Positions 5,081 through 38,397 of a DNA stretch of 38,397 nt are shown piece after piece (within the stretch, counting starts at the first letter, position 1; each line of letters opens with the position of its first letter). Source of the DNA: a virus; the IMG/VR virus record IMGVR_UViG_3300019477_000079, positions 1 to 38,397 of that record. The stretch is one strand, 5' to 3'. Under the pieces are notes generated by a model. It saw nothing but the letters and a program-made list of their open reading frames with translations, did no database searches and was not told the DNA's origin. A program made the position numbers and the translations under genes.

Positions 5081-6676
5081 ATGCTACTCAAGGAAATACA
5101 GCCAAAGATAAATGGCAAGCAGTCGGTATTACAGTTCAAAGGATATAACGCAAATGCTGTAATAGATGACGGTGAGATGAGGGATATGTACAACTTGTCA
5201 TCAGATAAGTACCCTGTACTCTCTCAAAGAGCGCCAAGAAATATTATAGATATGCCAGTGCAACATCCAAGAGATATCATCGTAAAAAACAATGTGCCAT
5301 ACATCATAGATAGATATGAGGTAGATGGAGAGATAAGAACATTTATCAAATACTCTAAAGGTGGCACGGATTACCAAAAGCGAATAAACAACATCATGCC
5401 TAAAACTATGGTGGCACATAATAATAAAATCTGCATATGGCCAGATAAGGTGTATCTAGATATTACAGATAACACCGTAAAGCACATGGACGCATCAGTA
5501 AAGGCTACGGCAACAATTAAGCCAGGCAGCATATATCTAGTTGGTGCAGATTTATCTGAATTCTCTGTTGGTGATGCTGTTGAGATATCCGGATGCAAAA
5601 AGCAACCAGGTAATAACACAGTGATCGTGATCAAGAATATAGAAGGTAGCACGATTACCACTTATGAGAATTCATTTAGAATGCCTAGTGATGATGTGAC
5701 TAAAGAGTCATATGTTGAAGAGGAAGTAAAGCTCACACGAGAGATTCCAGATCTTGATTACGTTATGGAAAGCAATAATAGATTGTGGGGTTGTAGGAGC
5801 GAAGACAACACAATTTATGCTAGTAAGCTAGGAGATCCGCTTAATTGGAACTATTTCCAGTCGCTAGCAAACGATTCATACGCACTAGAGGTTGGTTCAG
5901 ATGGTGAATTTACAGGATGCGCTGCATATCCTACGCACCTAATCTTCTTCAAAGAACATCATATGCATAAAGTGTTCGGAAGTATGCCAAGTCAATATCA
6001 GCTATACAGCACTGAGTGTTTCGGAATAAGAAAAGGCTCTGATAAATCGGCTGTAATCGTGAATGGTGTATTGTACTATCATTCATTAACAGGCGTAATG
6101 GCTTATGATGGCGGCACATATCCGGTAATGATATCCGAAGCGTTCGGAGATTATCAGTTCAAATCAGCTGTCGGCGGCAGCAATGGTAAGAAATATTATA
6201 TTTCGATGCTAAATGAAAGCGAAAATAAGTACAATATCTTCACTTACGATATACTTCGCAGACTATGGCACAAGGAAGATGAAACAAAAGTAACAGCTTT
6301 TGCCAATGTGAATAACGAGCTTATATACATAGCAGACGGTAATATCTGGACTACTACAGGAAAACGTCCGGAAGATGATATTAAGTGGTTTGCTGTATTC
6401 GGACCATTTGATGAATTCGTAGAGAATATGAAGTCTTATAAGAAAATAAATATGAGACTAGATATGCAGCCAGGAGCACAGTTAAGGATAAGCACTCAGA
6501 ACAGCAGTGGTGAGTGGGAACCTATATATGAGTGCGAAACGGAGCGAGGAAAAACGCTTAGCGTACCAATTATCCCTAACAGGCAAGCAAAGTTCTCTAT
6601 AAAGATTGAAGGCGTGGGAAGGACAGATATTGAATCGCTTACAAGATACTATAGAGGTAGGAGTGATAGACCATGA
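5081..6676 (+). CDS. large virion structural protein (tail hub/nozzle candidate)
   Basis: 531 aa, RBS TAGGAGG. The composition is beta-rich with repeated aromatic-Gly motifs (LYYHSLTGVMAYDGG, KKYYISM, LIYIADGNIWT) that suggest a propeller-like fold. It sits in the structural operon. Confidence 0.55.
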   Translation: MLLKEIQPKINGKQSVLQFKGYNANAVIDDGEMRDMYNLSSDKYPVLSQRAPRNIIDMPVQHPRDIIVKNNVPYIIDRYEVDGEIRTFIKYSKGGTDYQKRINNIMPKTMVAHNNKICIWPDKVYLDITDNTVKHMDASVKATATIKPGSIYLVGADLSEFSVGDAVEISGCKKQPGNNTVIVIKNIEGSTITTYENSFRMPSDDVTKESYVEEEVKLTREIPDLDYVMESNNRLWGCRSEDNTIYASKLGDPLNWNYFQSLANDSYALEVGSDGEFTGCAAYPTHLIFFKEHHMHKVFGSMPSQYQLYSTECFGIRKGSDKSAVIVNGVLYYHSLTGVMAYDGGTYPVMISEAFGDYQFKSAVGGSNGKKYYISMLNESENKYNIFTYDILRRLWHKEDETKVTAFANVNNELIYIADGNIWTTTGKRPEDDIKWFAVFGPFDEFVENMKSYKKINMRLDMQPGAQLRISTQNSSGEWEPIYECETERGKTLSVPIIPNRQAKFSIKIEGVGRTDIESLTRYYRGRSDRP

Positions 6677-9050: not shown

Positions 9051-9358
9051 TGAGCGTAGGTTCAGTACATGGAATAACAACAGAAGTAAAAACTGTAACG
9101 AGAGATGTAGTTGTGGCCACAAATGGGGGAGTGGCAATGAGGTCTGTATCACAATCAGAATTAGGAATACCTTCGGATAGCAAAGTGATACTTGCACAAG
9201 TTCATCCAAAACACAGAGCAGGAGTAGACGATGTATGGACTGCAGTATTTTACGGGTATTCTTGGGATGATCAAAAAAGAAGTGTTGAAATTGCGGTAAA
9301 TGGAAGATTAACAGGTTTACAGAAACAAGAATTTGAAGTAAATGTTTTATATTACTAG
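9050..9358 (+). CDS. small structural-module protein, function unknown
   Basis: 102 aa with a TAATG overlap onto the upstream gene. Beta-rich. Confidence 0.55.
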   Translation: MSVGSVHGITTEVKTVTRDVVVATNGGVAMRSVSQSELGIPSDSKVILAQVHPKHRAGVDDVWTAVFYGYSWDDQKRSVEIAVNGRLTGLQKQEFEVNVLYY

Positions 9359-9367
9359 GAGGAATTT

Positions 9368-9663
9368 ATGATAGGTATAGTACATGGGGGGGGGGTAGAA
9401 CAAAAACCCAAGAACGCGTTACACTGGGCAGTGAGTGGACTGCGCCACATAATGGAACGCTTGTATGCGCTGGACGAGCACAAGCTGACTCGGCATATAT
9501 TTTTATAAAAGACAAAAATATTAATGCATATATCGGAATGCACACTATAGAGCTCAACCAACACTATGGTACGATAACAGTACCTGTAGTAGCAGGGCAT
9601 GTGTACGAAGTTAGACGAGGGTCCTGGCAAGTTCAAAGCGATTTATTCATATACGAATCGTAA
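9368..9663 (+). CDS. tail-module small protein interrupted by a G10 tract (98 aa if read with a -1 shift or with G11/G8)
   Basis: AGGAGG at 9357-9362 and ATG at 9368. As written, the frame stops at 9506-9508 (46 aa). The -1 frame is open from before the G-run to TAA 9661-9663 and has no start codon of its own before 9538. Confidence 0.6.
9386..9395 (+). repeat. homopolymer G10
   Basis: Ten consecutive G counted directly (9386-9395), inside codons 7-10 of the gene starting at 9368. Confidence 0.95.
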
Positions 9664-9703
9664 TTTTAATAATCGACTACCATGCTGTAGTAGGATGTAC
9701 TGG

Positions 9704-9738
9704 AAACGTCATCAACTGTTAAGTTGGTGGCGTTTTCT
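9704..9738 (+). terminator. intrinsic terminator after the tail/fibre block
   Basis: AAACGTCATCAAC (9704-9716) pairs with GTTGGTGGCGTTT (9723-9735), including two G-U pairs, around the loop TGTTAA. A T-rich tail follows. Confidence 0.6.
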
Positions 9739-9811
9739 GCATTATGAAGAGAGCGAAAACGCACAAGCAAAAGTGTAATATGTAATAAAAAAAGAAAACC
9801 AGGAGGAAGGC

Positions 9812-12800
9812 ATGGCAAATAAAGACCCATTCAAAAGTGCGTATAGTGAACAGATTGCGGCACTCGTTCAAAAGGCGCAGGACAACACGGCTAATTTTAA
9901 ATATGATCCTATGACAGATGTGTCATATCAGGCACTAGCTAAAGAATATGCAAGGCTTGGAGATAGAGCAAATGAAAACACTCTAGCCAATCAAGCAGCA
10001 TTAACTGGTGGTAGGGCGAGCACTTATGCAGTAAGCGCAGCAGCACAGGCACAGAATCAGTACAATCAAGCCTTAACAGATAAGATACCAGAGCTTGAGC
10101 GCTTGGCATATGACAGATTTAACGCAGATAGAAACTACGGCTTAAATCTACTTGGAACTATGAAGTCACTAGATGACTCAGCATATAGTAGATTTACTGA
10201 TCAGAGGAACTTTAATTATCAGCAGGGAAGAGACAATGTCGCTGATCAACACTGGGATAAAACATTTGATTACCAGAAGCTGCGAGACAGTGTTGCTGAT
10301 TCACATTGGGATAAAAATTTTGATTACCAAAAACAAAGAGATAATGTATCAGACTCACACTGGGAAAGAAACTTTAATTATCAGCAGGGAAGAGACAGCG
10401 TGAGCGACTCACACTGGGAAAGAGAGTATCAGTTAAAAAAAGACTCAGCCTCTAGAGCAGGTCGGCGCTCTGGGGGCGGTAGACACAGCCGAAAAGGAAG
10501 AAGAGGAAGAGGTGGAAGTTATCAAGAGCAATCAACACAGGTTGTATCATATGTTCCTAGTGTTGCTGCTCAAATTGCCCAGAATGCAGCGAAAGGGATT
10601 TTAACAGGTAAGGCTAAAAAAGGTAAGTCGGTTAAATCTCAAACGTATAAAAAGGCTGCCAGAATGGGATACGCTCCTATAGCGTTTAGAAGAAATACAC
10701 CTGCAGAGGCAAGAGCAGCTGCAAGAAAAGCAGTAAAGAGAATCATCTACGGAGATAATAAGCATTATGTAAGCAAAGATCCTGTAAGGCGTGCGAACGA
10801 TATATTCAACAATACACAGATGGCAGGTATAAATAATAATTCGGATAGACGCGCGCTGTATGCTCTTAAAGGTTTAGTTGAATCTAAAAAATCTGACCTG
10901 CTTAACGCAGCGTGGACTGTTACCTCAACACCTACACTCGATCCTAAGAGTATGCACCAGGATCTACAGAGATACAGCGAACTAGGATATATCAAGAATG
11001 GAATGCTAGACGCCGACAAACTGTCAAAAGATGCTAGAGATGCATTTAGTGGATTTTATAAATACGTTGAGAAAACAAGACAAAAAGCTGAAGCGCTTAA
11101 CTACATGGCGAAAGAGGCAGGTATTTATAAAACAGAACTGCAGTATGATACCAAAGCCGGCAAGTTCAAGAGAAAGCTATACTTAAAAGATAAAAACGGT
11201 AACGAACCAAGAGAGGGCGTAATTGAAAAGCCTAGCGCTGGTCAGAAATTCGCTATAGATATTGCACAAGGAACGCTAGGCTTCCTTGCTGATTTAGCTG
11301 TAGGCAAATTTACAGGCGTAGGAATACTGCCTGTAATGGGTGTTAACGCATTCGGACAAGGGGCAGGAGACGCGAGGGCTGCAGGCGCAGGTATATATTC
11401 CCAATGGGGCGCTGGATTAACAAACGCAGGAATCAATGTTGGAACTGAAAAAATGTGGAGTACATCAAATATCATGAGAAACTCTACAGGTAGAGGACTA
11501 TTAGATAATGGTGCTGAAAAGTTTGCTAACAAAATGGCTGCTAGATTCGCAAAGGGAACTGCGGCAGATGAGATAAGATACAAAGCAATTAAGCTTGGTC
11601 TAGCTGCATCAACCGAAGGTGTAGAAGAATTTATGAATGCAATTCTCCAGCCAATATCTGATAGATTTTACGACCCAGATGCGTTTAAGAAAATAGCAGA
11701 GAATCCTACAGGCTACCTTGCGGATGCTGTTTATCAGGGCATAGTAGGTACAGCAATAGGCGGTATTGTTGGGGGTCCTAGCGGAGTAAATATGAATATT
11801 GAACTGTCTGCAGAAGATAAAGAAAAAATACTGCAGGCAGGTCTTGCTATGTCTGAAAAGAGCAGCGCAAACAACTTTGCTAGGTCGATTGATAAAAATA
11901 GACTTAAGGGCGGTAAAGTACTAAATAATGCTATCCTAGATTTAAAACATAAAATTGAATCCGGAAGAGAACTAACAGAGCATGATCAGATGCTTTTAAG
12001 CGCAGCAAAGAAATCGCGCATAAGAGGCGCAGAGAATGTATCCGGTAGTTTTATTATCAGATCCGAAGAAGGACTAAACACTGAATATGATAGAGAAAAG
12101 GCGTCCGTACTTTTAACTCAAAAAGTTGCGAACAGAGAAAAAGAAGTTAGGAAGTACTTACAGGATGCAGATACTCCTAAAAAGACTATTGATGAACTGT
12201 CATTCCCAGTAGCCAGGATATTAGAGGGAACAGGCAGCAGTGCAGATGTAGAAAATGTACTATTCACAGTAGATAACAATCCAGCTCTTGAACTAATTCA
12301 GAACGAAACAACGCAGGATTTAAACGTAGGAATGCTGCCTAGAATGAACAATGGAATGATAATGGGCGGTGCCAGAGAAACGCAGAGCTTCAAGAAAGAG
12401 CTAAACTCTTTTATGGAAGCAAGATACGAGAGCAACGTTGAAGAAATATTGCCGAAAGCAAAGGACGCAGCAAAAAAAGAAATGCTGGCATCTATTGGCA
12501 TGAAAACAAATCCAGAAATAGAAAAGCTGTTCGATGAAGGCGCAAAGAATGTGAAGGAAGGCGAAGAGTTTATAAACTATGCACACGCATTTAATTACTT
12601 CTACGATTCTGGAAGAAGAGGATTAGACTACAAGAATCTTGACAAGGCTATATTCCAAAGTGAGCTAGTACCTGCAGATATCCGTAAAAAGATATACGAG
12701 ATAGGAAAAGCTGAGAGAGAAGATAATAACATCATTACAAACAAGTCAAAGCTACCGATAGGATTTAAAGCCGGAAGAGTAACACTTGGTGAGAACGTGA

Positions 12801-15800
12801 GCATGAGCAACTCAATGACTAACGCATACAGAACACTCGCTAAGTCTTTTGGTGTTGAAATATCTCTTGAAGAGAATATCAAAGACTCAGAAGGTAACGA
12901 AGTAAACGGCTATTACAAGAATGGAACTATCCACATTTCCATGAAATCAGATAGCCCTGTTGTTAATGTTCTAAAACATGAGGTAACACACCATATCCAG
13001 GTTAATTCACCTAGGCAGTATGCAGCATTTAAAAAGTATGTGCTTGATGAATTCTATAACTCAAATCTTGCTGAGTATGAAAATAAACTCAACAAGTATA
13101 TGAATGACTACAAGGACATATCACGTGCCGAAGCAGAAGATGAATTGCTAGCGGATGCTACAGATGTTTTTTGGAAGGGCGATGCTGATGCAGAAGCAGC
13201 AGTTAAAACACTTGTAGAAAAAAATAGAAGCCTTGGAGAAACAATCCTCAAGGCTATTAAGTCTACAGTAGATAAGCTAAACACATTAAGCAAGAATGTT
13301 ATAAACGCATTAAAAGGGGAATACCGCGGTAAGTGGCTTGAAGAACTAGGAATCCTTGAAAAAGCACAAGAGATGTGGACTAATGCTTTGATGAATCCTG
13401 AAATAGATAAATTTGAAGAGGCTGTTAATAATAATGATGAAATCAAATTCATGTATAAAGGTAAGGATTCAGAGGGTAGAGATGTTTTCTCAATTTCTAG
13501 CAAAACGAAAAAGCTCACAAAAAAAGAAAAGCGAACAGAATTAACGGAGAGATTTAAAAACGGAGAAGTATTAACTGTTGAATTCGATAACGGCAAAGGT
13601 AGAAAGTATACAGCTAAGCCACATGAGGATTTTGCAGGAAAGAATTTTTACGGTGACAAACAAACAAAATCGATTAATGCATTTAATAAAAAGGTGAATC
13701 TATTCTATGAAGGGGATTTATCGAAACTGTTACAGAATTCGGAATACATAAGACCTGGAGATGAAAAGAAGGAACATAAAAATGTAATCAAATGGGAGTA
13801 CTACAAAAAAGAAATTGTAATAGGAGAAACGCCGTATAAATTATTGATTAATGTGCAAAACCGAACTGATGGGGATTTTATTTACAACATTAAATTCGAA
13901 AAAATAAAAAAAGACCAACATTGGCAAGCTATCAATGAAGATAGTAAAAATAACGCCCATGTTGGTATTGATAGTGTAAATCTATCACAAAACAACGAAG
14001 AGGTCAAGGAAAAATACCAGAGAAAAAATAGTATCTTCGATATCCCTAACAATCAGCAAGCTGATTCTAACACTATCAGGCAGCTTAACAAGAAAATCGA
14101 TGCACTGATTCTAAATCAGACTAAAACAAAGGGAACCATACCTAAAAGGTCATCTGTTGTTAGTTACCTAAAAGAACTAATAACAGAGGTCGGTTCAGAT
14201 GTAAAAGCAGAAGATTTACGTATTGATTATCACAATCTTTATAAAGCAGCTAAATCAGGTGATGATGCAACGAAAGAGAGGTTATTAAACGAAATAACAA
14301 GAGAAATTGTTAAAAATACCTATGAGACTAATCGCGTATCTCCAGAAATAAGGGATATACAGAGATATCTCAAAAATATGACTATCTCTATCGATGAAGA
14401 TTTAGAAACAGAAATCAAGAATAGATACGGCACATTTGGAAAGTTTAAAGATTATATCGATGGTGCTTTCAAAATAAAACTTAATAAGAACATCGATAGA
14501 ATGGAATATGCCGTTCCTGTTGATGACATGCTGTCTGAAATGAGCGAGCTGTTCGGAGATACTATCAAGGTTGACGGACGAAGTCTAGACGATGTTACAG
14601 ACTTTGTTACAGCTCTAGCTACAATTGCTGAGTATGCATCGGTAAAAGATAATAAAGTTTATCTTTTTGATGGCGGTGCAAACCTAACTCAGTACACCGA
14701 AAAAGAAATTGCTGAATACGAAGATGAGCTAATAAAGGATGTTAAAGCCAATCTAGAAGCTAGCCTTGGCGAGATTAAGCCTATCGTTACTTATGCAGAT
14801 AAGCAAGAGGCAAGAATTAGTAAGCTAAAAGCTAGCATGAAAAGAAGTGCTATGGATAAGCCAGAGCAAGCAAAGTCAAAGAAGCTTATAAACAAGCTGA
14901 TTAATGACACAGGCTCAAAGTTGCCGGCAGAAGATGCTACGAGAATCTATGAAGAGGTTTGGTCGGCCGTGCACCAGGCAACACCGAACGCTAGTGCAGC
15001 ATATTCTGCAGCTGCGAGGTTATCAAATGCACTCCTTAACTCGAACGAGAATAATATAAAGGAAAACCTTCAAACAAAGAAGCAAGTAATAGATCTACTC
15101 AGTGTAGGTAAAATTTATATTTCTCCAGAATTGGCAAAGAAACTAAATTACCAGGAGTTAAAGGCTAGATACGGCCATGCGTTAAGATTTACAACAGATA
15201 TCAATAGCGAGCATACAATGCCTGCTGAACTGGTATATGACTTCTTCCAAAATAAACTAGGTGAGAAATACCCTGAACTATTCGCATCAGATGCATCAGA
15301 TGCAGAAGAGGCTGTAAAGAACCTGTGTAACGCTGTAGATATGGTTGAAACATCTGCAGAGACAGACGGTCTAATTAATGGTGAATATAAAAACGTTGCT
15401 AGTGATATCACGGAATTAATACTAGATAGCGCAATTTCTATGAAGCCAGAAATGACCTATGCAGATAAACAGCAGGAGAAACTTAAAGCTGCTGTAAAGG
15501 AAGCAAGAAACAAAATAAAAGAAAGGGAGACTATAAAGAGGCAGAAAGCAGAAAAGAAACATGAAGAGGAAATAGCAGAAAAAGACAAGGCTATAGAAGA
15601 ACTCGAAAGCGCTATCAAAGAAGAAAGAGAGTCAGTAAACGAGCTAAAGCGAGATTTAAGAAAAGAGCGCAGCGAACTGAATAGAAAGAGCAAGGCGATT
15701 AATAGCATTAAGTGGTACTCTAACAAATTATCAAACAAGCTGTTAAAACCTACCAATACGCAGTTCATGCCGGAAGAGTTTAGGAAATCTATCGCAAAGG

Positions 15801-18800
15801 TTCTATCTGAGATGGATTTTTCTACAGATCGTGGCGACGCGTTCTATGAAACGCACGGATATAACAAGACCTATGAAAACTTCATGGAGTTAAAAAACGA
15901 ATATCGCAAGGTGCTTGAAGAAAAGAACGACGGTGATAGTACGTTTAGTTTTGTTGAGGACGAAGATTTTATGAATCAAATTGATTCAGTTCTTGAGGCT
16001 TTAAAAGAATCAAGGCTTGTCGATATGGACGCCGATACAATCGAAAGCGTTAGGGATGTAATTAGAGGTTTAGACGGAATTATAAATAAGCATAACGATA
16101 TGCTTAAGTATGACCAGTACAAAACAATCAGCGATACAGGAAATGCGGTAATTAGTGAACTCAGCAAAAAAGCAGAAAAGAATCGCTATGCGGGCGGAGC
16201 TAGTGCTGTATCCAAGTTTATATTCTCGAGAAATATTAATCCGGCAGATAGATTTGCTGTACTGGGTGGCACGCTCAACAAACTGTTTAAAGAGATAACA
16301 ATCGGCTTTGATGATCACGCAATGAATGTTAAAGGCGCTCAAAATGAATTTCAGAGAATTCAAGAGGCTGTAGGCGAAGATACATTTAATAATATCTGGG
16401 AGGATTCAAAAGTAGAATCCTTCAAGCTGGAATCTGGCAAAACCTTAAACCTAACTCATGGGCAGATGGTAACACTATTCCTTCTCAGCGAAAGAAATCA
16501 GGCGCTAGAACACATTCTTACTGGTGGTATTCAGACTGCAGAAGTTAAACCGAAGAAACTCGGCAAAAACACTGTACTTAGAAAAAGCTCCGTGCAGAGG
16601 GAAAAGATAACACGTAGTGATATTATAAACATCGTTAAGAGCTTATCTCCGGAAGAAATAAAGTGTGCAAAGATGATTCAGCATTACCTTAATACAACAG
16701 TCTCCGACTGGGGAAATGAAGTGTCCATGAAAGTATGGGGATACAACAAGTTTACAGAAGAAAAGTATTTCCCTATCAAGATTGCAAGAGAAACTGTAGA
16801 TGCCAATGTTGAAGAGGCGGCGGTAACTAAAATTATCAATCCAGGATTTGCAAAGAAAACAAAACCATCAGCAAAGAATGCGGTTGTGCTAGATAACGTA
16901 TTAAGTGTCGCATCAAATCATATAAGCGCTATGAGTGCGTATCAGGCACTATCTATGCCACTACAAGACCTAGAAAATGTATGGAACTATAGAGGATACG
17001 GAGAAGATGGCGTAATTAAAGGCTCTGTTAGAGAGGCAATCGAACGTGCATATGGTAGAGAGGCTAACGAATACATAGAGAAATTCTTGAAGGATGTAAA
17101 CGGCAATATCGCAAAAAGCGAGATGCCTATCACAACCAAGATTATAGGAACAGCAAAGCGTGCTGCAATTGCAGCCAACGGAAGAGTAGCTATGCAGCAG
17201 CCTATGTCAATCGTTAGAGCGTCCGCCGTGATAAATCCAAAATATCTAGCTAGGAGCAAGTATTCGCGTGATGCGGTAAAAGAGATGCAGCAACACTCAG
17301 GTGTCGCTGTGTGGAAAGATCTAGGCTACTATTCAACAGACGTAGGACCAAGTCTTACCAATGCTATGATTAACAAGGAAAATAAACTAGAGAAAGTAAC
17401 ACTTGATATGTACGGTTTCCTTGATAATATGACATGGGGTAAAATCTGGGGTGCTTGTAAGCTCAAAGTTGAAGACACAATGAACATCCATGAAGGAGAC
17501 GAAGGATACTGGCAAGCAGTAAATGAACAGTTTAGAGAAGTTGTGTATAGAACTCAGGTATTCGACTCTGTACTATCAAGATCTGAATTAATGAGGCAAA
17601 AGGATGTAGGATCATCAGTATTAACAGCATTCTTATCAGAACCAACTAAAACGCTGTCGCTGTTCATTACTAATCAGCAAATTGCAAAGCAAACGTATGA
17701 TGAGGGCAATGTAGCAGAAGCTAGAAAGCTAGTTGCAAAACAGTTCGGTTGGTTCATATCGTCAGCGGCAGCAATGGCGGTTATGAAATCTTTTTATGAT
17801 GCTGCAATAAGACACATAGCGGACGATGATAAAAAGGACAAGAATTTTGTTGAGCGATTCCTCGATGCGCTTCTAGGAGAGAACAAGCTCCATACAGACG
17901 GAAATCTATTTGGGGAACTAAATCCTATAGCTATGCTACCTGTAGGAAAGGATATCCAGTCGGCACTACAAGGATATACACCATCAAGACTAGATATGTC
18001 TCTATTTGTAAAAATTAGCGACGCATACAAGGCGTGTGTAGATCCTAAGAATAGTTTAGTTACAAAGCTTGAAAAGGTTGCTAATGCAGCAGGCGTATTC
18101 TTTGGACTTCCTGTAGATGTAGTTTATAGGGATTTAAAGGGCTCATTTGCATATATAGCATCAATACACGATTTTTTCACCGGCGCAAATACAAAACAAG
18201 ATTTGCTGATGGACTTCGCGAAAATCGAGAAAACATACAAGGGCAATAAAGGTTACTTTAAAAGCGTTGCGACCGACTCCGAAAAGTACGATAGCGAAAC
18301 GAGAGAAAAGGCAGCTAAATACATTCTTGAAAACGATAAAGAATACACAAGAGAGAAAATTGATAAAGAAACGATTAATCGCATTAAGAGAAACCATAAT
18401 GATGAAATGGATAACTTTATCAAGAAAGGCAAGAATGAAGAGGCTGAAAAACTTGCAAAGAGTCTTGCAGCGAGAAATAGCATGTTGGATGCAGAGGAGT
18501 ATTTGCAGCAGCGTATTAATAAGGTGAAGACTGATCAATTGAAGAAGATTGAAAATGCCCTCATGAAAGGTAACGTTGAAGAGGCTGAAAAGTTTGCAAA
18601 CAAATTTAACAAGATGAATATCAATGTTCAAGGCGAGCAGTACACCTCTGATGTGGCTATGGAAAAATCAAAAGAATGGATACGAAAGGAATATCTCAAA
18701 GGGGTTATTGATGGTTTAAAAGCTCAAAATAACTTAAAGGTTGAAAAACAACTCGCAAAGATAGAACGCATAGACCCAACAAATACTGATTTTCAGCGTG

Positions 18801-19015
18801 AAGAGGTGCTATATAGTGCAAAACAAAGCATGAGATATAGCTACTATCCATATATCAACAAAGCACTTGCTCGCGGAGATGTTGAAACAGCAAGAGTATA
18901 TGCGCAGAAAATAGAAGCTCTCTATCCAGGAGACCGCAAGTATACCGCAGATGCTGTCATTAAGAGGAGCTATAAATACGCTACAAGAAACAAAAGAAAG
19001 AAGAAAAGAAGGTAG
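9812..19015 (+). CDS. giant 3067-aa virion-associated protein (candidate ejection/polyvalent or tape-measure-like protein)
   Basis: Uninterrupted 9204-nt ORF with RBS AGGAGGAAGG. It lies between the tail genes and the lysis cassette and is bounded by terminators. It contains 18-aa tandem repeats, an RG-rich patch, glycine-rich hydrophobic segments, HEVTH, and long coiled coils. Confidence 0.6.
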   Translation: MANKDPFKSAYSEQIAALVQKAQDNTANFKYDPMTDVSYQALAKEYARLGDRANENTLANQAALTGGRASTYAVSAAAQAQNQYNQALTDKIPELERLAYDRFNADRNYGLNLLGTMKSLDDSAYSRFTDQRNFNYQQGRDNVADQHWDKTFDYQKLRDSVADSHWDKNFDYQKQRDNVSDSHWERNFNYQQGRDSVSDSHWEREYQLKKDSASRAGRRSGGGRHSRKGRRGRGGSYQEQSTQVVSYVPSVAAQIAQNAAKGILTGKAKKGKSVKSQTYKKAARMGYAPIAFRRNTPAEARAAARKAVKRIIYGDNKHYVSKDPVRRANDIFNNTQMAGINNNSDRRALYALKGLVESKKSDLLNAAWTVTSTPTLDPKSMHQDLQRYSELGYIKNGMLDADKLSKDARDAFSGFYKYVEKTRQKAEALNYMAKEAGIYKTELQYDTKAGKFKRKLYLKDKNGNEPREGVIEKPSAGQKFAIDIAQGTLGFLADLAVGKFTGVGILPVMGVNAFGQGAGDARAAGAGIYSQWGAGLTNAGINVGTEKMWSTSNIMRNSTGRGLLDNGAEKFANKMAARFAKGTAADEIRYKAIKLGLAASTEGVEEFMNAILQPISDRFYDPDAFKKIAENPTGYLADAVYQGIVGTAIGGIVGGPSGVNMNIELSAEDKEKILQAGLAMSEKSSANNFARSIDKNRLKGGKVLNNAILDLKHKIESGRELTEHDQMLLSAAKKSRIRGAENVSGSFIIRSEEGLNTEYDREKASVLLTQKVANREKEVRKYLQDADTPKKTIDELSFPVARILEGTGSSADVENVLFTVDNNPALELIQNETTQDLNVGMLPRMNNGMIMGGARETQSFKKELNSFMEARYESNVEEILPKAKDAAKKEMLASIGMKTNPEIEKLFDEGAKNVKEGEEFINYAHAFNYFYDSGRRGLDYKNLDKAIFQSELVPADIRKKIYEIGKAEREDNNIITNKSKLPIGFKAGRVTLGENVSMSNSMTNAYRTLAKSFGVEISLEENIKDSEGNEVNGYYKNGTIHISMKSDSPVVNVLKHEVTHHIQVNSPRQYAAFKKYVLDEFYNSNLAEYENKLNKYMNDYKDISRAEAEDELLADATDVFWKGDADAEAAVKTLVEKNRSLGETILKAIKSTVDKLNTLSKNVINALKGEYRGKWLEELGILEKAQEMWTNALMNPEIDKFEEAVNNNDEIKFMYKGKDSEGRDVFSISSKTKKLTKKEKRTELTERFKNGEVLTVEFDNGKGRKYTAKPHEDFAGKNFYGDKQTKSINAFNKKVNLFYEGDLSKLLQNSEYIRPGDEKKEHKNVIKWEYYKKEIVIGETPYKLLINVQNRTDGDFIYNIKFEKIKKDQHWQAINEDSKNNAHVGIDSVNLSQNNEEVKEKYQRKNSIFDIPNNQQADSNTIRQLNKKIDALILNQTKTKGTIPKRSSVVSYLKELITEVGSDVKAEDLRIDYHNLYKAAKSGDDATKERLLNEITREIVKNTYETNRVSPEIRDIQRYLKNMTISIDEDLETEIKNRYGTFGKFKDYIDGAFKIKLNKNIDRMEYAVPVDDMLSEMSELFGDTIKVDGRSLDDVTDFVTALATIAEYASVKDNKVYLFDGGANLTQYTEKEIAEYEDELIKDVKANLEASLGEIKPIVTYADKQEARISKLKASMKRSAMDKPEQAKSKKLINKLINDTGSKLPAEDATRIYEEVWSAVHQATPNASAAYSAAARLSNALLNSNENNIKENLQTKKQVIDLLSVGKIYISPELAKKLNYQELKARYGHALRFTTDINSEHTMPAELVYDFFQNKLGEKYPELFASDASDAEEAVKNLCNAVDMVETSAETDGLINGEYKNVASDITELILDSAISMKPEMTYADKQQEKLKAAVKEARNKIKERETIKRQKAEKKHEEEIAEKDKAIEELESAIKEERESVNELKRDLRKERSELNRKSKAINSIKWYSNKLSNKLLKPTNTQFMPEEFRKSIAKVLSEMDFSTDRGDAFYETHGYNKTYENFMELKNEYRKVLEEKNDGDSTFSFVEDEDFMNQIDSVLEALKESRLVDMDADTIESVRDVIRGLDGIINKHNDMLKYDQYKTISDTGNAVISELSKKAEKNRYAGGASAVSKFIFSRNINPADRFAVLGGTLNKLFKEITIGFDDHAMNVKGAQNEFQRIQEAVGEDTFNNIWEDSKVESFKLESGKTLNLTHGQMVTLFLLSERNQALEHILTGGIQTAEVKPKKLGKNTVLRKSSVQREKITRSDIINIVKSLSPEEIKCAKMIQHYLNTTVSDWGNEVSMKVWGYNKFTEEKYFPIKIARETVDANVEEAAVTKIINPGFAKKTKPSAKNAVVLDNVLSVASNHISAMSAYQALSMPLQDLENVWNYRGYGEDGVIKGSVREAIERAYGREANEYIEKFLKDVNGNIAKSEMPITTKIIGTAKRAAIAANGRVAMQQPMSIVRASAVINPKYLARSKYSRDAVKEMQQHSGVAVWKDLGYYSTDVGPSLTNAMINKENKLEKVTLDMYGFLDNMTWGKIWGACKLKVEDTMNIHEGDEGYWQAVNEQFREVVYRTQVFDSVLSRSELMRQKDVGSSVLTAFLSEPTKTLSLFITNQQIAKQTYDEGNVAEARKLVAKQFGWFISSAAAMAVMKSFYDAAIRHIADDDKKDKNFVERFLDALLGENKLHTDGNLFGELNPIAMLPVGKDIQSALQGYTPSRLDMSLFVKISDAYKACVDPKNSLVTKLEKVANAAGVFFGLPVDVVYRDLKGSFAYIASIHDFFTGANTKQDLLMDFAKIEKTYKGNKGYFKSVATDSEKYDSETREKAAKYILENDKEYTREKIDKETINRIKRNHNDEMDNFIKKGKNEEAEKLAKSLAARNSMLDAEEYLQQRINKVKTDQLKKIENALMKGNVEEAEKFANKFNKMNINVQGEQYTSDVAMEKSKEWIRKEYLKGVIDGLKAQNNLKVEKQLAKIERIDPTNTDFQREEVLYSAKQSMRYSYYPYINKALARGDVETARVYAQKIEALYPGDRKYTADAVIKRSYKYATRNKRKKKRR
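10199..10430 (+). repeat. in-frame 54-nt tandem repeat (3 full units plus 2 partial) inside the giant ORF
   Basis: Units start at 10244, 10298 and 10352, with a partial unit at 10406 and a leading partial unit at 10199. They encode D(Q/S)HW(D/E)(K/R)xF(D/N)YQxxRD(N/S)V(A/S). Confidence 0.9.
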
Positions 19016-19019
19016 ATTT

Positions 19020-19052
19020 TGAGGCTGTCGAAATGGCAGCCTCATTTCTTTT
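19020..19052 (+). terminator. intrinsic terminator after the giant ORF
   Basis: TGAGGCTGTC (19020-19029) pairs with GGCAGCCTCA (19035-19044), followed by TTTCTTTT. Confidence 0.85.
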
Positions 19053-19095
19053 AAAATTAATACAGCAGAATTTATAGAAAGTGTAGGAGGCACAT

Positions 19096-21563: not shown

Positions 21564-22109
21564 ATGTTAAAAGCTATAGATGTTGCTAATTTCTTTATTT
21601 ATCTATTAAGCGATAAAGAAGATGAAGAAAATGATTTAACAAATATGAAGCTTAATAAGCTTACATATTATGCACAAGGCCAGTTCCTAAAAACAAACGG
21701 AAAACCTTTATTCTCAGAAGGTATAGAGGCATGGATACACGGTCCAGTAGTCCCTTCGGTTTATTGCGAATTTAAAGAAAACAAAAATAATCCTATAAAA
21801 GACTTTAGCGGTGATTTTGATATATCTAAATACACTGACGAAGAAAAAGAAGTAATGCTCGATGTAGCTCTTGATAAAGGCAGGTACAGTGCAACCACGT
21901 TAAGAAACATGACGCACAAACTAGGGGGACCATGGGCACAATGCTATAACGGAAATCTACACGTAGCCATACCGAACGAACTAATAAAGGAGTATTTCTG
22001 CAAGCATGATGTTTTAGAACACTTAGAGTTAGATTTATCGGATTGCGAGGTAATCGGGCATAGAAATGATGATGGATATCTAGTTCTGCCTAAAGAATAT
22101 GACTGTTAA
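21564..22109 (+). CDS. Panacea-domain (DUF4065, SocA/GepA-like) putative antitoxin
   Basis: 181 aa. The hallmark pattern is IDVANFFIYL...LTNMKLNKLTYYAQGQFL...GKPLFSEGIEAWIHGPVVPSVYCEFK. It overlaps the downstream toxin-like gene by 11 nt. Confidence 0.85.
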   Translation: MLKAIDVANFFIYLLSDKEDEENDLTNMKLNKLTYYAQGQFLKTNGKPLFSEGIEAWIHGPVVPSVYCEFKENKNNPIKDFSGDFDISKYTDEEKEVMLDVALDKGRYSATTLRNMTHKLGGPWAQCYNGNLHVAIPNELIKEYFCKHDVLEHLELDLSDCEVIGHRNDDGYLVLPKEYDC

Positions 22110-22413
22110 AAAATGGGAAATTCACTGGGCACACGTTGTGTTTGAAGATTCTGACGAGGTAAAGCGAAGACCGGTACTGATTATAGACGAGTCAAATGCG
22201 GTTATTATTAGTCTTAAAATGACAGGAACTGATAGAGGAGACAATGTGCGCGAATATCGTATTGAAAAGTGGCAGGAAGCCGGGCTTTCCAAGCCAACGT
22301 CTGTTAGGCTAGATAAAATCCTGCACTTACAAAAAACTGACCTTGACGGGAAAATCGGAAGGCTTCAAGAAATAGACATAATTAAAATCAGATTCAGAAT
22401 GAGTAAAAGATAA
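22099..22413 (+). CDS. MazF/PemK-like toxin-fold protein
   Basis: 104 aa. The N-terminal pattern WEIHWAHVVFEDSDEVKRRPVLIID and the C-terminal SVRLDKILHLQKTDLDGKIGRL match the PemK/MazF SH3-like barrel signature by eye. Confidence 0.75.
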   Translation: MTVKKWEIHWAHVVFEDSDEVKRRPVLIIDESNAVIISLKMTGTDRGDNVREYRIEKWQEAGLSKPTSVRLDKILHLQKTDLDGKIGRLQEIDIIKIRFRMSKR

Positions 22414-22414
22414 T

Positions 22415-22440
22415 AAACGCACGGATTTATCCGTGCGTTT
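22415..22440. terminator. bidirectional hairpin terminator at the TA / integrase junction
   Basis: AAACGCACGGA (22415-22425) pairs perfectly with TCCGTGCGTTT (22430-22440) around the loop TTTA. The integrase stop codon (22440-22442) lies in its edge. Confidence 0.8.
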
Positions 22441-23162
22441 TACTTTGCGTTTATCATATCCCAAGATCCAGTAAGTAAATCATCTAGCATATCCGGAAGC
22501 GGTACATATCTATCGGCCGCTGCGCTCTTAGTTCCTCGCACGTGAATATATTTACGCTCATTGCTAACAACTATATCTTCGTACTTTATCTTTGCTGCCT
22601 CGGAAGGGCGGCAGCCACATAGGTAAATAAGCATAAAATATATAGCGTACTGATGCCTTAAAGCACATTTAACAAATACCTCTTGCTCCTCGGCGGTTAG
22701 AGAGCGTCTTTTATTCAAGGTACCAGTAGGTTTAGATATATCCGCAGCCGGATTTGAATTAATTAAACCATTATCCACAGCTTTTCTAAATATGAAATTA
22801 AGTTTCTGATACACTTGCCCTATGGTGTACTTACTCATACCCTCATACTTATTAATAAGAGATTGGCACATTATAGGGCGTACATCCTTAAGCTTATAAT
22901 GACCAATCTCACTAACTATATATTTCTCTGTAAAATCTAAATACCTATCGCGAGCGTCTTCACTAGAACTAGTCTTGTAAGTCTCAACGCATTTCCTAGC
23001 CCAGTCTCCAAGTGTCATATTAGAATTAATAATCACATGGTTAGCTTTTAGATCCTCGAGCCTTTTCTGATATTTCATTCCGAGCTCTAGTTCAGAGTTT
23101 GCCCGGATGTAATATCGTTTGCCATCATATGTAAATGTCTTTGTAAATTTATATCTTTTCAT
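22440..23162 (-). pseudogene. int: tyrosine integrase, 3'-truncated (arm-binding, core-binding and first part of the catalytic domain only)
   Basis: 240 aa from ATG 23162. It has an N-terminal arm-type domain (FTYDGKRYYIRA), a SAM-like core, the catalytic Arg context (LCGCRPSEA) and GTKSAAADRYVPLP. The ORF ends about 25 aa later, without the H-x-x-R box or the catalytic Tyr region. No matching fragment is found downstream. Confidence 0.7.
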
Positions 23163-23476
23163 CAAGCCCTCGCAGCATAGATATTAATTAAAATCGATCC
23201 AATAGGAAAGCTGGCTAGCCCAGCTACAGTCATATAATACTGATAATCGAAGCCTATATAATATCCTGCGATCCAAACAACCGCACATACAATCATTGGA
23301 ACGAAAATTGCAAATGCACCTTTAGACGTTAAAAACCCTGCAGTTAAAAAAGCGAATCCAAGGTAATTAAATGAGACAAGATAATAGTCTCTACAAAGAA
23401 TAGCGAGAAACATAAACGCTATAGGCAATACATAATCAAATAACGCATATCTAATTTTCTCTGATGTACTACACAT
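23162..23476 (-). CDS. small multi-pass membrane protein (possible superinfection-exclusion/immunity accessory)
   Basis: Start ATG 23476 with RBS AAGGTGG; the track start at 23524 lacks an RBS. The product is 104 aa with 3-4 hydrophobic helices. It lies between the repressor and integrase genes, and its stop overlaps the int start. Confidence 0.6.
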   Translation of the reverse strand: MCSTSEKIRYALFDYVLPIAFMFLAILCRDYYLVSFNYLGFAFLTAGFLTSKGAFAIFVPMIVCAVVWIAGYYIGFDYQYYMTVAGLASFPIGSILINIYAARA

Positions 23477-23492
23477 GTTAATACCACCTTTC

Positions 23493-23590
23493 AAATCACG
23501 AGTATAAAAAAATAATATATCCATTGAAATTCAAACATTTAGACAATGAATCGTAATGCCAAATTGATAAAATCACGAGCAAATCACGAG
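23493..23590. repeat. three copies of the decamer AAATCACGAG
   Basis: Exact copies at 23493-23502, 23570-23579 and 23581-23590, in the spacer between the repressor gene and the membrane-protein gene. Confidence 0.85.
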
Positions 23591-27892: not shown

Positions 27893-29089
27893 ATGAAATT
27901 TATAGACTTTTTCTCTGGAGTGGGAGGGTTCACAAGAGGCTTAGAGCTCGCGGGGCATGAATGCATAGGGCACTGCGAATTTGATAAATTTGCGGAAGCT
28001 AGTTACAGATCTATGCACACCATAACGGAAGAGCAACGAACTCATCTTAACGAACTTAATAAAAAGAAAAGACAGAAGGAGATCTTAAAAAGTGAATACC
28101 TCAATGGAGAATGGTACGCAAGAGATATTCGAACAGTTAACTCTACCAATATTCCAAGAGCTGACTGCTGGACCTTCGGCGCACCGTGTCAAGACTTTTC
28201 AGTCGCAGGCAGGCGAGCAGGGCTTGACGGAGAAAGAAGTAGCCTTGTACGAGAAATTTTTAGAATCCTGGAAGAGCTCGAAGAAAAAGATAGACCCACA
28301 TGGATTATCTACGAGAATGTTAAGGGAATGCTTTCTAGCAACAGAGGACTTGACTTCCTATCAATCATCGTTGAAATGGACCAACTCGGGTACGATCTCG
28401 AGTGGCAAAATATCAACTCGAGATGGTTCGTTCCACAAAATAGGGAGCGCATATACGTTGTTGGATGTTATCGAGGAAGAAGTAGACGACAAATTTTTCC
28501 TATCACGGGAAATGGCGGAGAAAATAGTACAAGGCAATTAATTGGTGGCGCACAAGCGCATCGAGTATATGACAGCAACGGAATCGCTTGCACGCAGAAC
28601 GCACAAGCTGGCGGAGTTGGCGCAAAAACAGGACTATATGCATTCGGCGTTGATAAATCATCGAATAAATTACAAGAGCTGCAAATTGCGAACTGTCTTA
28701 CGACGAAAGAGCGCGGAGTATCAAATAGAAGAAACGAGGCCACAGCAATTGCAATTCCTGTACTAACACCGTTTAGGAAAGAGAAGCGCCAAAACGGGAG
28801 AAGGTGCAAGGAAGCTGGGGAAGATATGTTTACCCTGACAACGCAAGACCAACATGGAATTGCGATAAAGGCGGATGAAGAAAAAGACGTTTGGGCGGTG
28901 TGGAGCGAGAAATACAATTGCTATCTTACAATTAGAAAACTGACACCGAGAGAAAGCTTTCGCCTCCAAGGGTGGACAGACAATTATTATGAAAGAGCAG
29001 GATTCGTAAACAGTGATAGCCAATTATACAAGCAAGCTGGAAACGGAGTAACGGTTAATGTTGTTAAGGCGATAGGGGATAAATTATGA
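27893..29089 (+). CDS. DNA (cytosine-5)-methyltransferase
   Basis: The ordered motifs are present: I FFSGVGGF, IV GAPCQDFS, VI YENVKGM, VIII QNRERIY, IX TPRESFRLQG, X QAGNGVTVNV. Confidence 0.95.
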   Translation: MKFIDFFSGVGGFTRGLELAGHECIGHCEFDKFAEASYRSMHTITEEQRTHLNELNKKKRQKEILKSEYLNGEWYARDIRTVNSTNIPRADCWTFGAPCQDFSVAGRRAGLDGERSSLVREIFRILEELEEKDRPTWIIYENVKGMLSSNRGLDFLSIIVEMDQLGYDLEWQNINSRWFVPQNRERIYVVGCYRGRSRRQIFPITGNGGENSTRQLIGGAQAHRVYDSNGIACTQNAQAGGVGAKTGLYAFGVDKSSNKLQELQIANCLTTKERGVSNRRNEATAIAIPVLTPFRKEKRQNGRRCKEAGEDMFTLTTQDQHGIAIKADEEKDVWAVWSEKYNCYLTIRKLTPRESFRLQGWTDNYYERAGFVNSDSQLYKQAGNGVTVNVVKAIGDKL

Positions 29090-29853
29090 AAACACTGTTG
29101 AAATATCCAGGAGCAAAGAATCGATTAGCGCCGTGGATAGTGAGCCACATACCACCGCACAAGGTGTATTGCGAGCCGTTCTTGGGTAGTGGTGCAGTTT
29201 TCCTGAATAAAGAACCTGCATATAACGAAATCCTGAACGATCTAGACGATGATATTTACAACTTTTTCAAGGTCATACGGGAGCAATCAGAAGAACTCTG
29301 CAGATTGATAGAGGCTACACCATACTCACGCGCTGAATATGCAGCGGTGTATGTAGAGAGCGAAGAAGAGGCGTTATCTATCGAACGTGCAAGAAGATTT
29401 GCAGTTAAGTGCTGGCAGGGCTTCGGATGCGGAAACAAGTATAAGAACGGACATAGGCGAGGTATAGGGGCTACAAGCCCTAATCCCGCAAAAGCGTGGG
29501 CAAGGCTCCCGGAAACGATACAGCTTGCGGCCGAAAGGTTAAAGAACGCACAGATTGAGCACAAAGACGCACTTGAACTTATAAGTGACCTATATGGCAA
29601 AAACACGTTTATATACATAGACCCTCCGTATCTGCAGGATACAAGGAAGAAGTATTTATACAACCATGAAATGACAGATGAACAGCATGTGAAACTGCTA
29701 CAAATTGTCAAAGAAAGTGATTGTAAGATTATGATTTCCGCGTATGAAAACGAGCTGTATAACACAGAGTTGATAGGTTGGAGAAAAGAACACAAGTCAA
29801 CCACGGCCGAATGTTCGAGAAAGAGAACTGAAACGCTGTATATGAATTATTAA
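29086..29853 (+). CDS. DNA N6-adenine methyltransferase (Dam/D12 class)
   Basis: KYPGAKNRLAPWI, EPFLGSGAVF (SAM binding) and IYIDPPYL (DPPY catalytic motif). ATGA-coupled to the C5 methyltransferase gene. Confidence 0.9.
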   Translation: MKTLLKYPGAKNRLAPWIVSHIPPHKVYCEPFLGSGAVFLNKEPAYNEILNDLDDDIYNFFKVIREQSEELCRLIEATPYSRAEYAAVYVESEEEALSIERARRFAVKCWQGFGCGNKYKNGHRRGIGATSPNPAKAWARLPETIQLAAERLKNAQIEHKDALELISDLYGKNTFIYIDPPYLQDTRKKYLYNHEMTDEQHVKLLQIVKESDCKIMISAYENELYNTELIGWRKEHKSTTAECSRKRTETLYMNY

Positions 29854-37916: not shown

Positions 37917-38397
37917 ATGACATATAGAGATTTTTACCTCTTCGATGGAGAGGGCGGCGAAGGAACAAGCGGTAATGCTGGTGTCGCTACCAGTGGTGAA
38001 GAGGGCACAGCCCTTGAAGAAAAGAAAGATGATGATTTGTTTGACGATAACAGCTATGACGATAGCGAGGAACCAGACGATGAACCATCAGAGGGTGAAA
38101 ACGCCGATGAACCCAAAGACCTATCTGCAGAGTTCGAAGAACTAATCAAAGGGAAGTATAAAGACTTATACGATGCGCGCGTTAAGGATACACTTTCAAA
38201 GAGATTCAAGAACGCAGAAGCAGATAGAAATAGACTTGGTGAATATGAAGATGCGCTATTTGTACTTTACGACAAGTACGATATTGAGCCTGGTAATCTT
38301 AACGGACTCAAAGAGGCAATCGCAAAAGATGGCGAACTGCTAGAAGAAAGAGCAGAAAGAGAAGGCTTATCAGTTGAACAGTACAAGTACCAGAAGA
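37917..38397 (+). CDS. scaffolding protein, N-terminal part (continues at base 128 through the terminal repeat)
   Basis: AGGAGG at 37907-37912 and ATG at 37917. The frame is open to the window end (MTYRDFYLFDGEGGEGTSGNAG...) and is in phase with frame 1 at the window start. Confidence 0.75.
   Translation, partial: MTYRDFYLFDGEGGEGTSGNAGVATSGEEGTALEEKKDDDLFDDNSYDDSEEPDDEPSEGENADEPKDLSAEFEELIKGKYKDLYDARVKDTLSKRFKNAEADRNRLGEYEDALFVLYDKYDIEPGNLNGLKEAIAKDGELLEERAEREGLSVEQYKYQK
38271..38397. repeat. 127-bp terminal direct repeat, copy 2
   Basis: Identical to bases 1-127. Confidence 0.95.

Follow-up and report, generated by a model that had tools for sequence, protein, structure and literature searches.

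Polyvalent proteins, in which ADP-ribosyltransferase (ART), PBECR nuclease, peptidase, RadC and methylase domains are found, were catalogued by Iyer, Burroughs, Anand, de Souza and Aravind in 2017, who also proposed, in general terms, a processing role for the metallopeptidase domain (PMC5512222). Among giants of this kind, N4 gp50 is an encapsidated podovirus protein in which an HExxH domain lies upstream of a C-terminal region of ~1000 amino acids (aa) required for encapsidation (PMC5512222). The DarB-like gp69 of the Burkholderia podovirus JC1 (cf. Bcep22 gp75) has 4515 aa, takes up ~22% of its genome just 5' of the lysis genes, contains an LPD3 domain and was detected by mass spectrometry in purified virions (PMC9144972), and the 2811-aa polyvalent protein gp47 of the short-tailed temperate Stx phage phi24B is abundant in virions while invisible in the reconstruction, and has been put forward as an ejection protein that is encapsidated and contains a metallopeptidase domain (bioRxiv 10.64898/2026.04.10.717836). 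Giant open reading frames (ORFs) of this kind have also already been noticed in prophages of gut Clostridia: phi1 and phi4 of C. clostridioforme LM41, temperate predicted podoviruses of ~41 kb for which release of podovirus-like particles was seen by electron microscopy, each carry at the end of the structural module one 8-kb ORF with LPD3 similarity, ~20% of the genome (PMC11318856). Here these systems are compared with a giant gene of 3067 codons in the viral IMG/VR record IMGVR_UViG_3300019477_000079, all 38,397 nt of which were analysed and are referred to as the window.

At a probability of roughly 0.65, the product of this gene is a phage-type polyvalent protein, a member of a class that is already known (PMC5512222), which would be made late in infection, packaged in the virion and ejected. 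The protein is a very large multi-domain polypeptide of at least five distinct blocks, it holds domains associated with the class (a marginal LPD3 and a family-invariant HExxH...ExxxD motif), and its gene lies among late and virion genes, in a neighbourhood that is the same in distant relatives. Its likeness to the class extends to the probable zincin-like HExxH domain, a type that is the hub domain of polyvalent proteins, to the presence of an LPD-type domain in a giant late protein, and to mosaic shuffling (PMC5512222); it differs in that the two modules that define its subfamily, here termed A and B, fall outside the Pfam models, and in that no effector enzyme is recognizable in it besides the peptidase-like motif. 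The original prediction, made by eye from the sequence, had proposed an injected polyvalent or ejection protein, and this gains support from the modules that the protein shares with thousands of giant phage proteins and from the polyvalent domains carried by the homologues scanned. Packaging and ejection of the window protein itself are presumed by analogy, because of the position of its gene and the precedents of JC1 gp69 and phi24B gp47.

The family was delimited by searching 1.84 billion cluster representatives exhaustively with aa 1694-2816. This returned 3,879 clusters (50% identity) sharing module B at E<=1e-3, 2,716 of them at E<=1e-30. The matches were ~30-35% identical over ~950 residues and lay almost always near the C-terminus of proteins of 2,000-4,800 aa, while a word-indexed homologue search with the whole protein returned only ~120 near-identical copies and one with the module-B profile scored a single protein. 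Membership in a very large family of uncultured-phage proteins is well supported, and by homology rather than by resemblance. When 149 representatives were mapped, module B was present in all of them and module A in 128, placed 100-320 aa from the N-terminus in every representative that has it (jackhmmer); aa ~1250-1750 were variable and aa 2800-3067 were not common to the family. The comparison of homologues that had been suggested with the original prediction separates a conserved core, modules A and B, from a swapped slot, and the scaffold of the family consists of a basic N-terminal region, module A, the variable slot and module B. New here are the domain map of this very large uncultured subfamily and the finding that its two scaffold modules have neither a family model nor a structural relative. 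The ~1800 aa of modules A and B are covered by none of the Pfam models, MPTase-PolyVal and LPD1-40 among them in so far as Pfam contains these; searches of NCBIfam and of PDB sequences with the whole protein gave no matches, and those of PHROGs gave two families, both function-unassigned.

Homologous giants have 2,740-4,645 aa and are encoded on viral contigs of 35-45 kb, and in distant relatives the giant gene is always in the virion module, with the PHROG-511 (phrog_511) protein upstream and tail-fibre genes, or an endolysin or holin, on the 3' side. The slot contents of the relatives are ADP-ribosyltransferase, RNase-like, peptidoglycan-peptidase, RadC or methylase domains. Across 12 full-length homologues, Pfam matched ART-PolyVal in 10, PBECR5 in three, Peptidase_M23 in two, and PBECR3, RadC, C5 methylase and DUF6782 in one case each; in the family alignment ART is located in the stretch that separates module A from module B, and in one member it comes directly after module A. 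These observations bear on the alternative that the giant is made late and stays out of the particle, serving as a scaffold in assembly, at the cell surface or in lysis, or as an anti-defence enzyme in the cytoplasm of the producing cell only, an alternative that is regarded as distinctly unlikely. The virion-module position is kept over deep divergence, and the homologues carry the very domains that define virion-delivered polyvalent proteins; further, the outlay of a quarter of a 38-kb genome on one gene is in keeping with a particle component, such as is packaged in analogous phages (PMC9144972; bioRxiv 10.64898/2026.04.10.717836), and no signal peptide or cell-wall-anchor family was detected in Pfam scans. 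An unpackaged protein would be compatible with the presumptive nature of packaging in this subfamily and with the hairpins that bracket the gene, which could thereby be its own transcription unit.

Within the slot, the window protein holds a match to the C-terminal half of LPD3 that scored 22 bits on the whole protein; in the tile-wise profile searches, which had also been suggested, the match passed the cut-off of 27 marginally, at 27.5 bits (E 3.7e-6) on a 300-aa tile. PF18798 is a precomputed annotation on several near-identical copies of the protein, and LPD3 was found in two of 13 family members scanned, the window protein being one of the two. One copy (L025) that is ~95% identical elsewhere differs at 51-64% of residues within aa ~1200-1400 only, with sharp edges; a second, smaller hotspot of change in this copy lies at aa 2601-2700. 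The stretch with LPD3 is thus exchanged as a cassette between near-identical phages, the recombination pattern that would be expected of a conflict-facing domain. Judged by its recognizable content, a peptidase-like motif and LPD3 only, the window protein is a payload-poor member of its family.

Structure prediction, likewise proposed earlier, was carried out as AF2 models of modules A and B. Module A was modelled with a pLDDT of 64 overall and ~80 over aa ~989-1209, its most confident part, which surrounds the HExxH motif seen in the original prediction. That motif is the only one in the protein (aa 1056) and forms part of a gluzincin-type signature, in a predicted zincin-like layout of a strand, a helix, three strands and the HExxH helix, followed two helices on by the helix bearing the Glu. 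DUF6782, a putative metallopeptidase family of Pfam, was matched by two of 13 homologues scanned (best E 9.7e-6), and assignment of the domain as zincin-like (gluzincin) is considered probable, not proven. The profile of module A returned nothing from PDB sequences, and Foldseek found no PDB match for its model (best E across both models ~0.37-1.2; ZMPSTE24 stood at rank 29, not significant). The glycine-rich hydrophobic segments that had been noted by eye were recovered at aa 480-513, where hydropathy peaks, and at aa 640-660, the second with a conserved glycine zipper.

The HExxH domain also prompts comparison with the virion RNA polymerase of N4 or crAss type, which would transcribe early genes after injection. 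The window protein is near N4 gp50 (3500 aa) in size, gp50 likewise has an HExxH domain and a long C-terminal encapsidation region (PMC5512222), and in an hhalign comparison the N4 HELVH motif is aligned with the strand and helix that carry HExxH in module A. This alignment is, however, not significant (probability 1%), no RNA-polymerase family or PDB match was found, the predicted fold of module B is nearly all helical, and the CI-like repressor and temperate look of the phage suggest that the host polymerase is presumably used; such an identity for the giant is barely credible.

Module B was matched by PHROG 22978 (unknown function) at E 1.5e-170 and gave an almost wholly helical AF2 model (pLDDT 70.9, pTM 0.65). 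The original prediction had placed a large globular-looking region at aa 2000-2750; a conserved block is indeed found there, but it is almost all-helical and wider, spanning aa ~1800-2790. The long coiled coil also noted by eye corresponds to a K/E-rich stretch inside a predicted helix of 87 residues, helix 92-178 of the model. Within the most conserved sub-block the pLDDT was mostly 75-92, dipping to the 40s-60s around aa 2330-2355 and 2430-2460. Against PDB sequences the profile of module B returned coiled-coil noise only (apolipoproteins, ATP-synthase stalks), and Foldseek found no PDB match for the model (best E 0.37). Against BFVD the model matched 72 models, all of them C-terminal pieces of giant uncultured-phage proteins at identities down to 10-13%, with names such as 'PolyVal ADP-ribosyltransferase', 'Nuclease', 'Large polyvalent protein-associated domain-containing' and 'MuF C-terminal domain-containing'.

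The ejection proteins of T7 (gp14, gp15 and gp16) and P22 (gp7, gp20 and gp16) are internal head proteins of short-tailed phages, which leave with the DNA and bridge the envelope. The window giant could be chiefly a structural conduit, a single-chain counterpart of these sets that forms a channel across the Gram-positive wall and membrane and has no real effector function. The absence of other candidate ejection proteins from the genome would suit this, as would the length, helicity and conservation of modules A and B, with their conserved glycine zipper and hydrophobic helix, and the fact that the window member is without the ART, nuclease and peptidase domains of its relatives. No solved protein, however, resembles it in sequence or fold; the many invariant charged or polar residues and the HExxH...ExxxD motif appear to point to catalysis, and the swap of the LPD3 cassette between near-identical phages is the behaviour of a conflict module rather than of a structural piece. 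A purely structural conduit is therefore held to be unlikely. The likeness to the T7 and P22 proteins is one of presumed role only, together with a helical and moderately hydrophobic character; they are three polypeptides where the window has one, and no sequence or fold match connects them.

With respect to genome context, the window ends (1-127 and 38271-38397) are an exact 127-nt direct overlap, and the window therefore represents a circularly closed genome of 38,270 bp. Late genes recognized were those for a large terminase, a P22/SU10-like portal, an HK97-type capsid protein, a BppU_N protein, the 531-aa PHROG-511 protein, a fibre-like protein, the giant, a holin and a CHAP+SH3 endolysin; the other genes recognized were integrase-like, an S24 CI-like repressor, MazG, two DNA methylases and a Rep-like gene. 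The giant gene sits between tail-like genes on one side and the holin and CHAP/SH3 endolysin on the other, as had been stated for tail genes and a lysis cassette. Family searches among the window ORFs recovered neither a tail tube, a sheath, a tape measure or a chaperone nor a further candidate for an ejection protein, separate proteins of T7 or P22 type included. From this content the phage is inferred to be temperate and short-tailed (podovirus-like).

An ordinary tape-measure protein without enzymatic modules had been named as the outcome that would overturn the original prediction, and it was looked for in these searches. Very long helical proteins with glycine-rich hydrophobic segments beside tail genes are typical of tape measures, and the BppU_N domain encoded by one tail gene is a feature best known from siphoviruses. 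That the giant belongs to a long-tailed phage, as its tape measure or as another protein of tail length or of the tail interior, is nevertheless highly unlikely, as no tape-measure family was matched in Pfam at E<=10 or in PHROGs, in the protein or in the genome; genes for a tail tube, sheath or chaperone were not among the ORFs of the structural module; the portal is P22/SU10-like; and the homologues carry ART, nuclease and methylase domains. At the usual tape-measure scaling of ~0.15 nm per residue, 3067 residues would mean a tail of ~460 nm. The LM41 prophages, whose 8-kb LPD3-like ORF is comparable, release podovirus-like particles (PMC11318856), although that ORF is likened to the window giant by description only, from a one-paragraph account without a domain map.

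The remaining described giants compare as follows. JC1 gp69 is, like the window protein, a podovirus giant that is encoded ahead of the lysis genes and contains LPD3; it differs in having lytic transglycosylase, N6-methylase, helicase and LPD38 domains, none of which was found in the window giant. A DarB-like antirestriction protein (P1 DarB, Bcep22 gp75, JC1 gp69) was rejected as an identity for the giant, with neither the N6-adenine methyltransferase nor the SF2 helicase detected in tiles at E<=10, and neither module B nor the N-terminal 430 aa had BLAST-level similarity to any cultured-phage record. The likeness to phi24B gp47 is that of a polyvalent giant of a short-tailed temperate phage, with a metallopeptidase domain that in the window protein is probable; gp47 differs in its LPD5, LPD1, LPD38 and MuF-C domains, none detected in the window giant, and in its Gram-negative host. 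N4 gp50 differs in its RNA-polymerase module, of which none was found here, and the identification of module B with the N4 encapsidation domain was dropped, the hhalign comparison with the C-terminal 1397 aa of the N4 protein (aa 2104-3500) being not significant, albeit a weak test given its single-sequence template. An internal core protein of T7 gp16 type was rejected as well, with no SLT/LT family match and no PDB fold match for module A or B. At the nucleotide level, megablast against phages found nothing; by tblastn, module B and the N-terminal 430 aa had no homologue in a collection of 50,697 phage records except unannotated human-faecal fragments, and when the window core and a divergent family member were used as tblastn queries to find a cultured relative, one unannotated 4.8-kb faecal fragment was all that was returned.

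If the protein is indeed a packaged and ejected polyvalent protein, a possible sequence of events is that it would be made late, become part of the capsid of a short-tailed temperate phage whose host is one of the Clostridia, and leave through portal and tail along with the DNA. The scaffold modules would then serve in head incorporation and in passage or insertion through the envelope, replacing separate ejection proteins of T7 or P22 type, with the basic stretches contacting DNA and the glycine-zipper and hydrophobic helices engaging the membrane. The zincin-like domain might cleave the polyprotein to release its working pieces, whether inside the head or once entry has occurred, and during the first minutes of infection the slot domain would act on a target of the host or of its defence.

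Several observations weigh against this scheme. The LPD3 match is marginal and the domain is without known activity; the zincin assignment rests on the motif, the predicted topology and the two homologues matching DUF6782, as at this domain neither Pfam, PDB sequences nor Foldseek gave a significant match for the window protein and MPTase-PolyVal matches none of the family members scanned. The hydrophobic segments are moderate (maximum 1.5 in a 19-residue Kyte-Doolittle window), module B resembles no known ejection protein or other solved structure, and its many invariant polar residues are as compatible with an enzyme as with a conduit. Packaging is argued from gene position and from the proteomics of other families, the subfamily being known from sequence alone, and among the cultured phages of the GenBank phage collection module B has no homologue that could be detected. 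A tentative and more far-reaching proposal, possible though not probable, is that modules A and B form an undescribed single-chain DNA-ejection machine of a very large clade of ~40-kb short-tailed phages of gut Firmicutes, with a scaffold that would bring the protein into the head and across the Gram-positive envelope, a hot-swappable payload slot between the modules, a gluzincin-like domain that frees the payload, and in module B a new fold family that, to judge by its many invariant polar residues, is possibly enzymatic.

The amino-terminal region (aa 1-430) is not common to the family, other members having basic, low-complexity N-termini instead, with 100-300 aa of such sequence N-terminal of module A. 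An N-terminal domain had been described as conserved-looking, and this holds in so far as the domain and the repeats that follow (aa ~7-195; tblastn matches cover aa 6-210) are homologous to a stand-alone gene of related gut phages, but not in the sense of a family-wide domain, as it was not found in the other giants among the 149 representatives. The stand-alone family had 5,978 matches, every one unnamed, and it occurs as a separate ORF of 349 or 370 aa in two loci (L083 and L084) of phages whose TerL, portal and capsid proteins are 40-59% identical to those of the window phage. In a human faecal phage (L084; MT835607.1, 12280-21458) the 370-aa gene stands directly 5' of a different giant of 2,720 aa, which has a MuF_C (PBECR) domain and is without modules A and B. 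Because the stand-alone gene directly precedes another giant there, the related lineage seems to reserve a fixed slot in its genome for polyvalent giants that are unrelated to one another, and in the window phage a small neighbouring virion-module gene has been fused onto the giant. The 18-aa tandem repeats reported by eye were recovered by TRF in four copies, with a pattern of roughly D-x-V-x-D-x-H-W-[DE]-[KR]-x-F-x-Y-Q-x-x-R, and the reported Arg/Gly patch lies in the basic region that follows; PHROG 21397 (unknown function) matches aa 89-226. At the other end of the protein, the C-terminal helical repeats were borne out as three G-x-x-E-E/T-A motifs, at aa 2873, 2920 and 3022, beyond which lies a basic tail of net charge +11 (aa 3040-3067), with weak TPR/spectrin-like noise only in Pfam.

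The reading frame itself is secure. At the base composition of the window a stop is expected every ~14 codons, giving a probability of ~1e-98 for 3067 open codons, and the second-longest ORF of the window has 728 aa. The strong ribosome-binding site that had been claimed is confirmed (7 nt before the ATG), and the share of about a quarter of the genome comes to 24% of the 38,270-bp circle; the protein has a computed mass of 346.5 kDa and a pI of 8.7. The 3067-aa frame is intact at 97-98% identity in >120 independent assemblies, and because some near-identical copies lie within bacterial contigs of up to 665 kb, the element appears to be a common prophage. In two somewhat more distant relatives, synonymous-only codon changes exceeded amino-acid changes in almost every 100-codon bin, consistent with purifying selection on the gene outside the swapped stretch (aa ~1200-1400). 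Of the two terminators said to bracket the gene, the downstream one stood, with its T-run; the upstream one is a strong hairpin without a clean T-run, at which the terminator scan made no call. The coordinates of these features and of neighbouring genes are collected in Table 1.

Table 1. Features of the giant gene, its protein and neighbouring genes, in window coordinates.
Feature	Position (nt)	Strand	Residues (aa)	Remarks
Giant ORF	9812..19015	+		ATG start, 3067 sense codons, TAG stop 19013-19015
Ribosome-binding site AGGAGG	9799..9804	+		direct reading of letters
Upstream hairpin	9702..9741	+		-24.4 kcal/mol, z -6.5; 3' of small poly-G gene; terminator-like
N-terminal domain	9812..10207	+	1-132	with following repeats, homologous to stand-alone ~350-390-aa gene of related gut phages
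Four tandem 18-aa repeats	10208..10423	+	133-204	TRF: period 54 nt, 4.0 copies, 73% matches
Basic, Arg/Gly-rich low-complexity region	10424..10831	+	205-340	net +24; Arg/Gly patch aa ~212-236
Module A	11114..13561	+	~435-1250	helical Gly-rich hydrophobic part, then zincin-like domain (probable)
Glycine zipper GIVGTAIGGIVGG	11738..11776	+	643-655	GxxxGxxxG; G646 invariant, G650 and G654 nearly so
Gluzincin-type signature	12977..13156	+	1056-1115	H1056-E-x-x-H1060 ... E1111-x-x-x-D1115; invariant or nearly so in family alignments
Variable cassette	13409..14011	+	~1200-1400	family conservation profile falls here; holds LPD3-like domain
LPD3 match PF18798	13709..13885	+	1300-1358	C-terminal half of model
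Module B	15212..18181	+	~1801-2790	almost all-helical core common to whole family
K/E-rich predicted helix, 87 residues	15485..15745	+	1892-1978	AF2 model helix 92-178
Most conserved sub-block of module B	16679..17671	+	~2290-2620	invariant polar residues: WGNExS, YFPI, QQP..R, TQVxD, EPT
Hydrophobic Ala-rich helix, then acidic DDDKKDK patch	17729..17839	+	2640-2676	hydropathy peak aa 2640-2658; pattern also in family consensus
C-terminal helical repeats and basic tail	18212..19012	+		lineage-specific
Intrinsic terminator	19020..19054	+		11-bp stem (hairpin 19020-19044) then TTTCTTTT; -17.6 kcal/mol, z -4.7
PHROG-511 protein gene	5081..6676	+		531 aa
Small poly-G gene	9369..9664	+		ribosome-binding site 9358-9363, ATG 9369, G10 tract 9386-9395
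SocA/Panacea-domain gene	21564..22109	+		antitoxin-like, E 5.5e-20
SocA/Panacea gene with 104-aa partner ORF	21564..22413	+		between lysis genes and lysogeny module
Integrase-like gene	22440..23524	-		apparently incomplete
C5-cytosine and N6-adenine DNA methyltransferase genes	27893..29853	+		side by side

Directly 5' of the giant gene lies a small unlisted gene with a G10 tract. With G10 the frame from its ATG closes after ~45 codons, while the long downstream frame ends in VRRGSWQVQSDLFIYES and a stop at 9664; a tract of G8 or G11 would join the latter to the ATG, giving ~98 aa. Across 18 near-identical loci the tract was G8 in nine, G9 in eight and G7 in one, indicative either of a phase-variable on/off switch in a virion-module gene or of a homopolymer assembly error. 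Further upstream, the PHROG-511 protein carries the PHROGs label 'internal virion protein' and, of the neighbours upstream of the giant gene, is the one kept most consistently among distant relatives, at 27-40% identity. It had no Pfam or PDB match, PDB searches with this and a 584-aa tail-region protein having returned nothing useful, and it may be a partner of the giant protein.

Beyond the lysis genes, the SocA/Panacea-domain gene and its partner may constitute a toxin-antitoxin or defence moron. The adjoining integrase-like gene is covered by a 241-aa ORF whose match is confined to the SAM-like N-terminal domains and, in the catalytic domain, to the first ~55 positions, with an overlapping 120-aa ORF ahead of it, and it may be frameshifted or truncated. 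The adjacent methyltransferase genes suggest self-protection against host restriction; the methylases are here separate genes, not inside the giant protein, and one family homologue has a C5 methylase domain. As to the host, a copy of the giant gene that is 86% identical occurs in a metagenome-assembled genome of an uncultured Mogibacterium sp. (L001, CAKAFX010000003.1), where it is split into many ORFs of 150-430 aa, either as a decaying prophage or in an error-rich assembly. This copy is the sole host clue, a hint and not proof.

The passage of short-tailed phage DNA across the thick wall of Gram-positive gut bacteria, and the cargo that is co-injected with it, are poorly understood. For the single gene the conclusion is more modest, namely that it encodes a payload-poor member of a class described in 2017, of interest chiefly for the uncharacterized modules A and B. 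The family to which it belongs comprises thousands of sequence clusters in human-gut and other metagenomes, for which the map of scaffold versus payload provides a concrete target for virion proteomics and structural work, and the exchangeable slot would represent a natural catalogue of early-acting anti-host or anti-defence domains.

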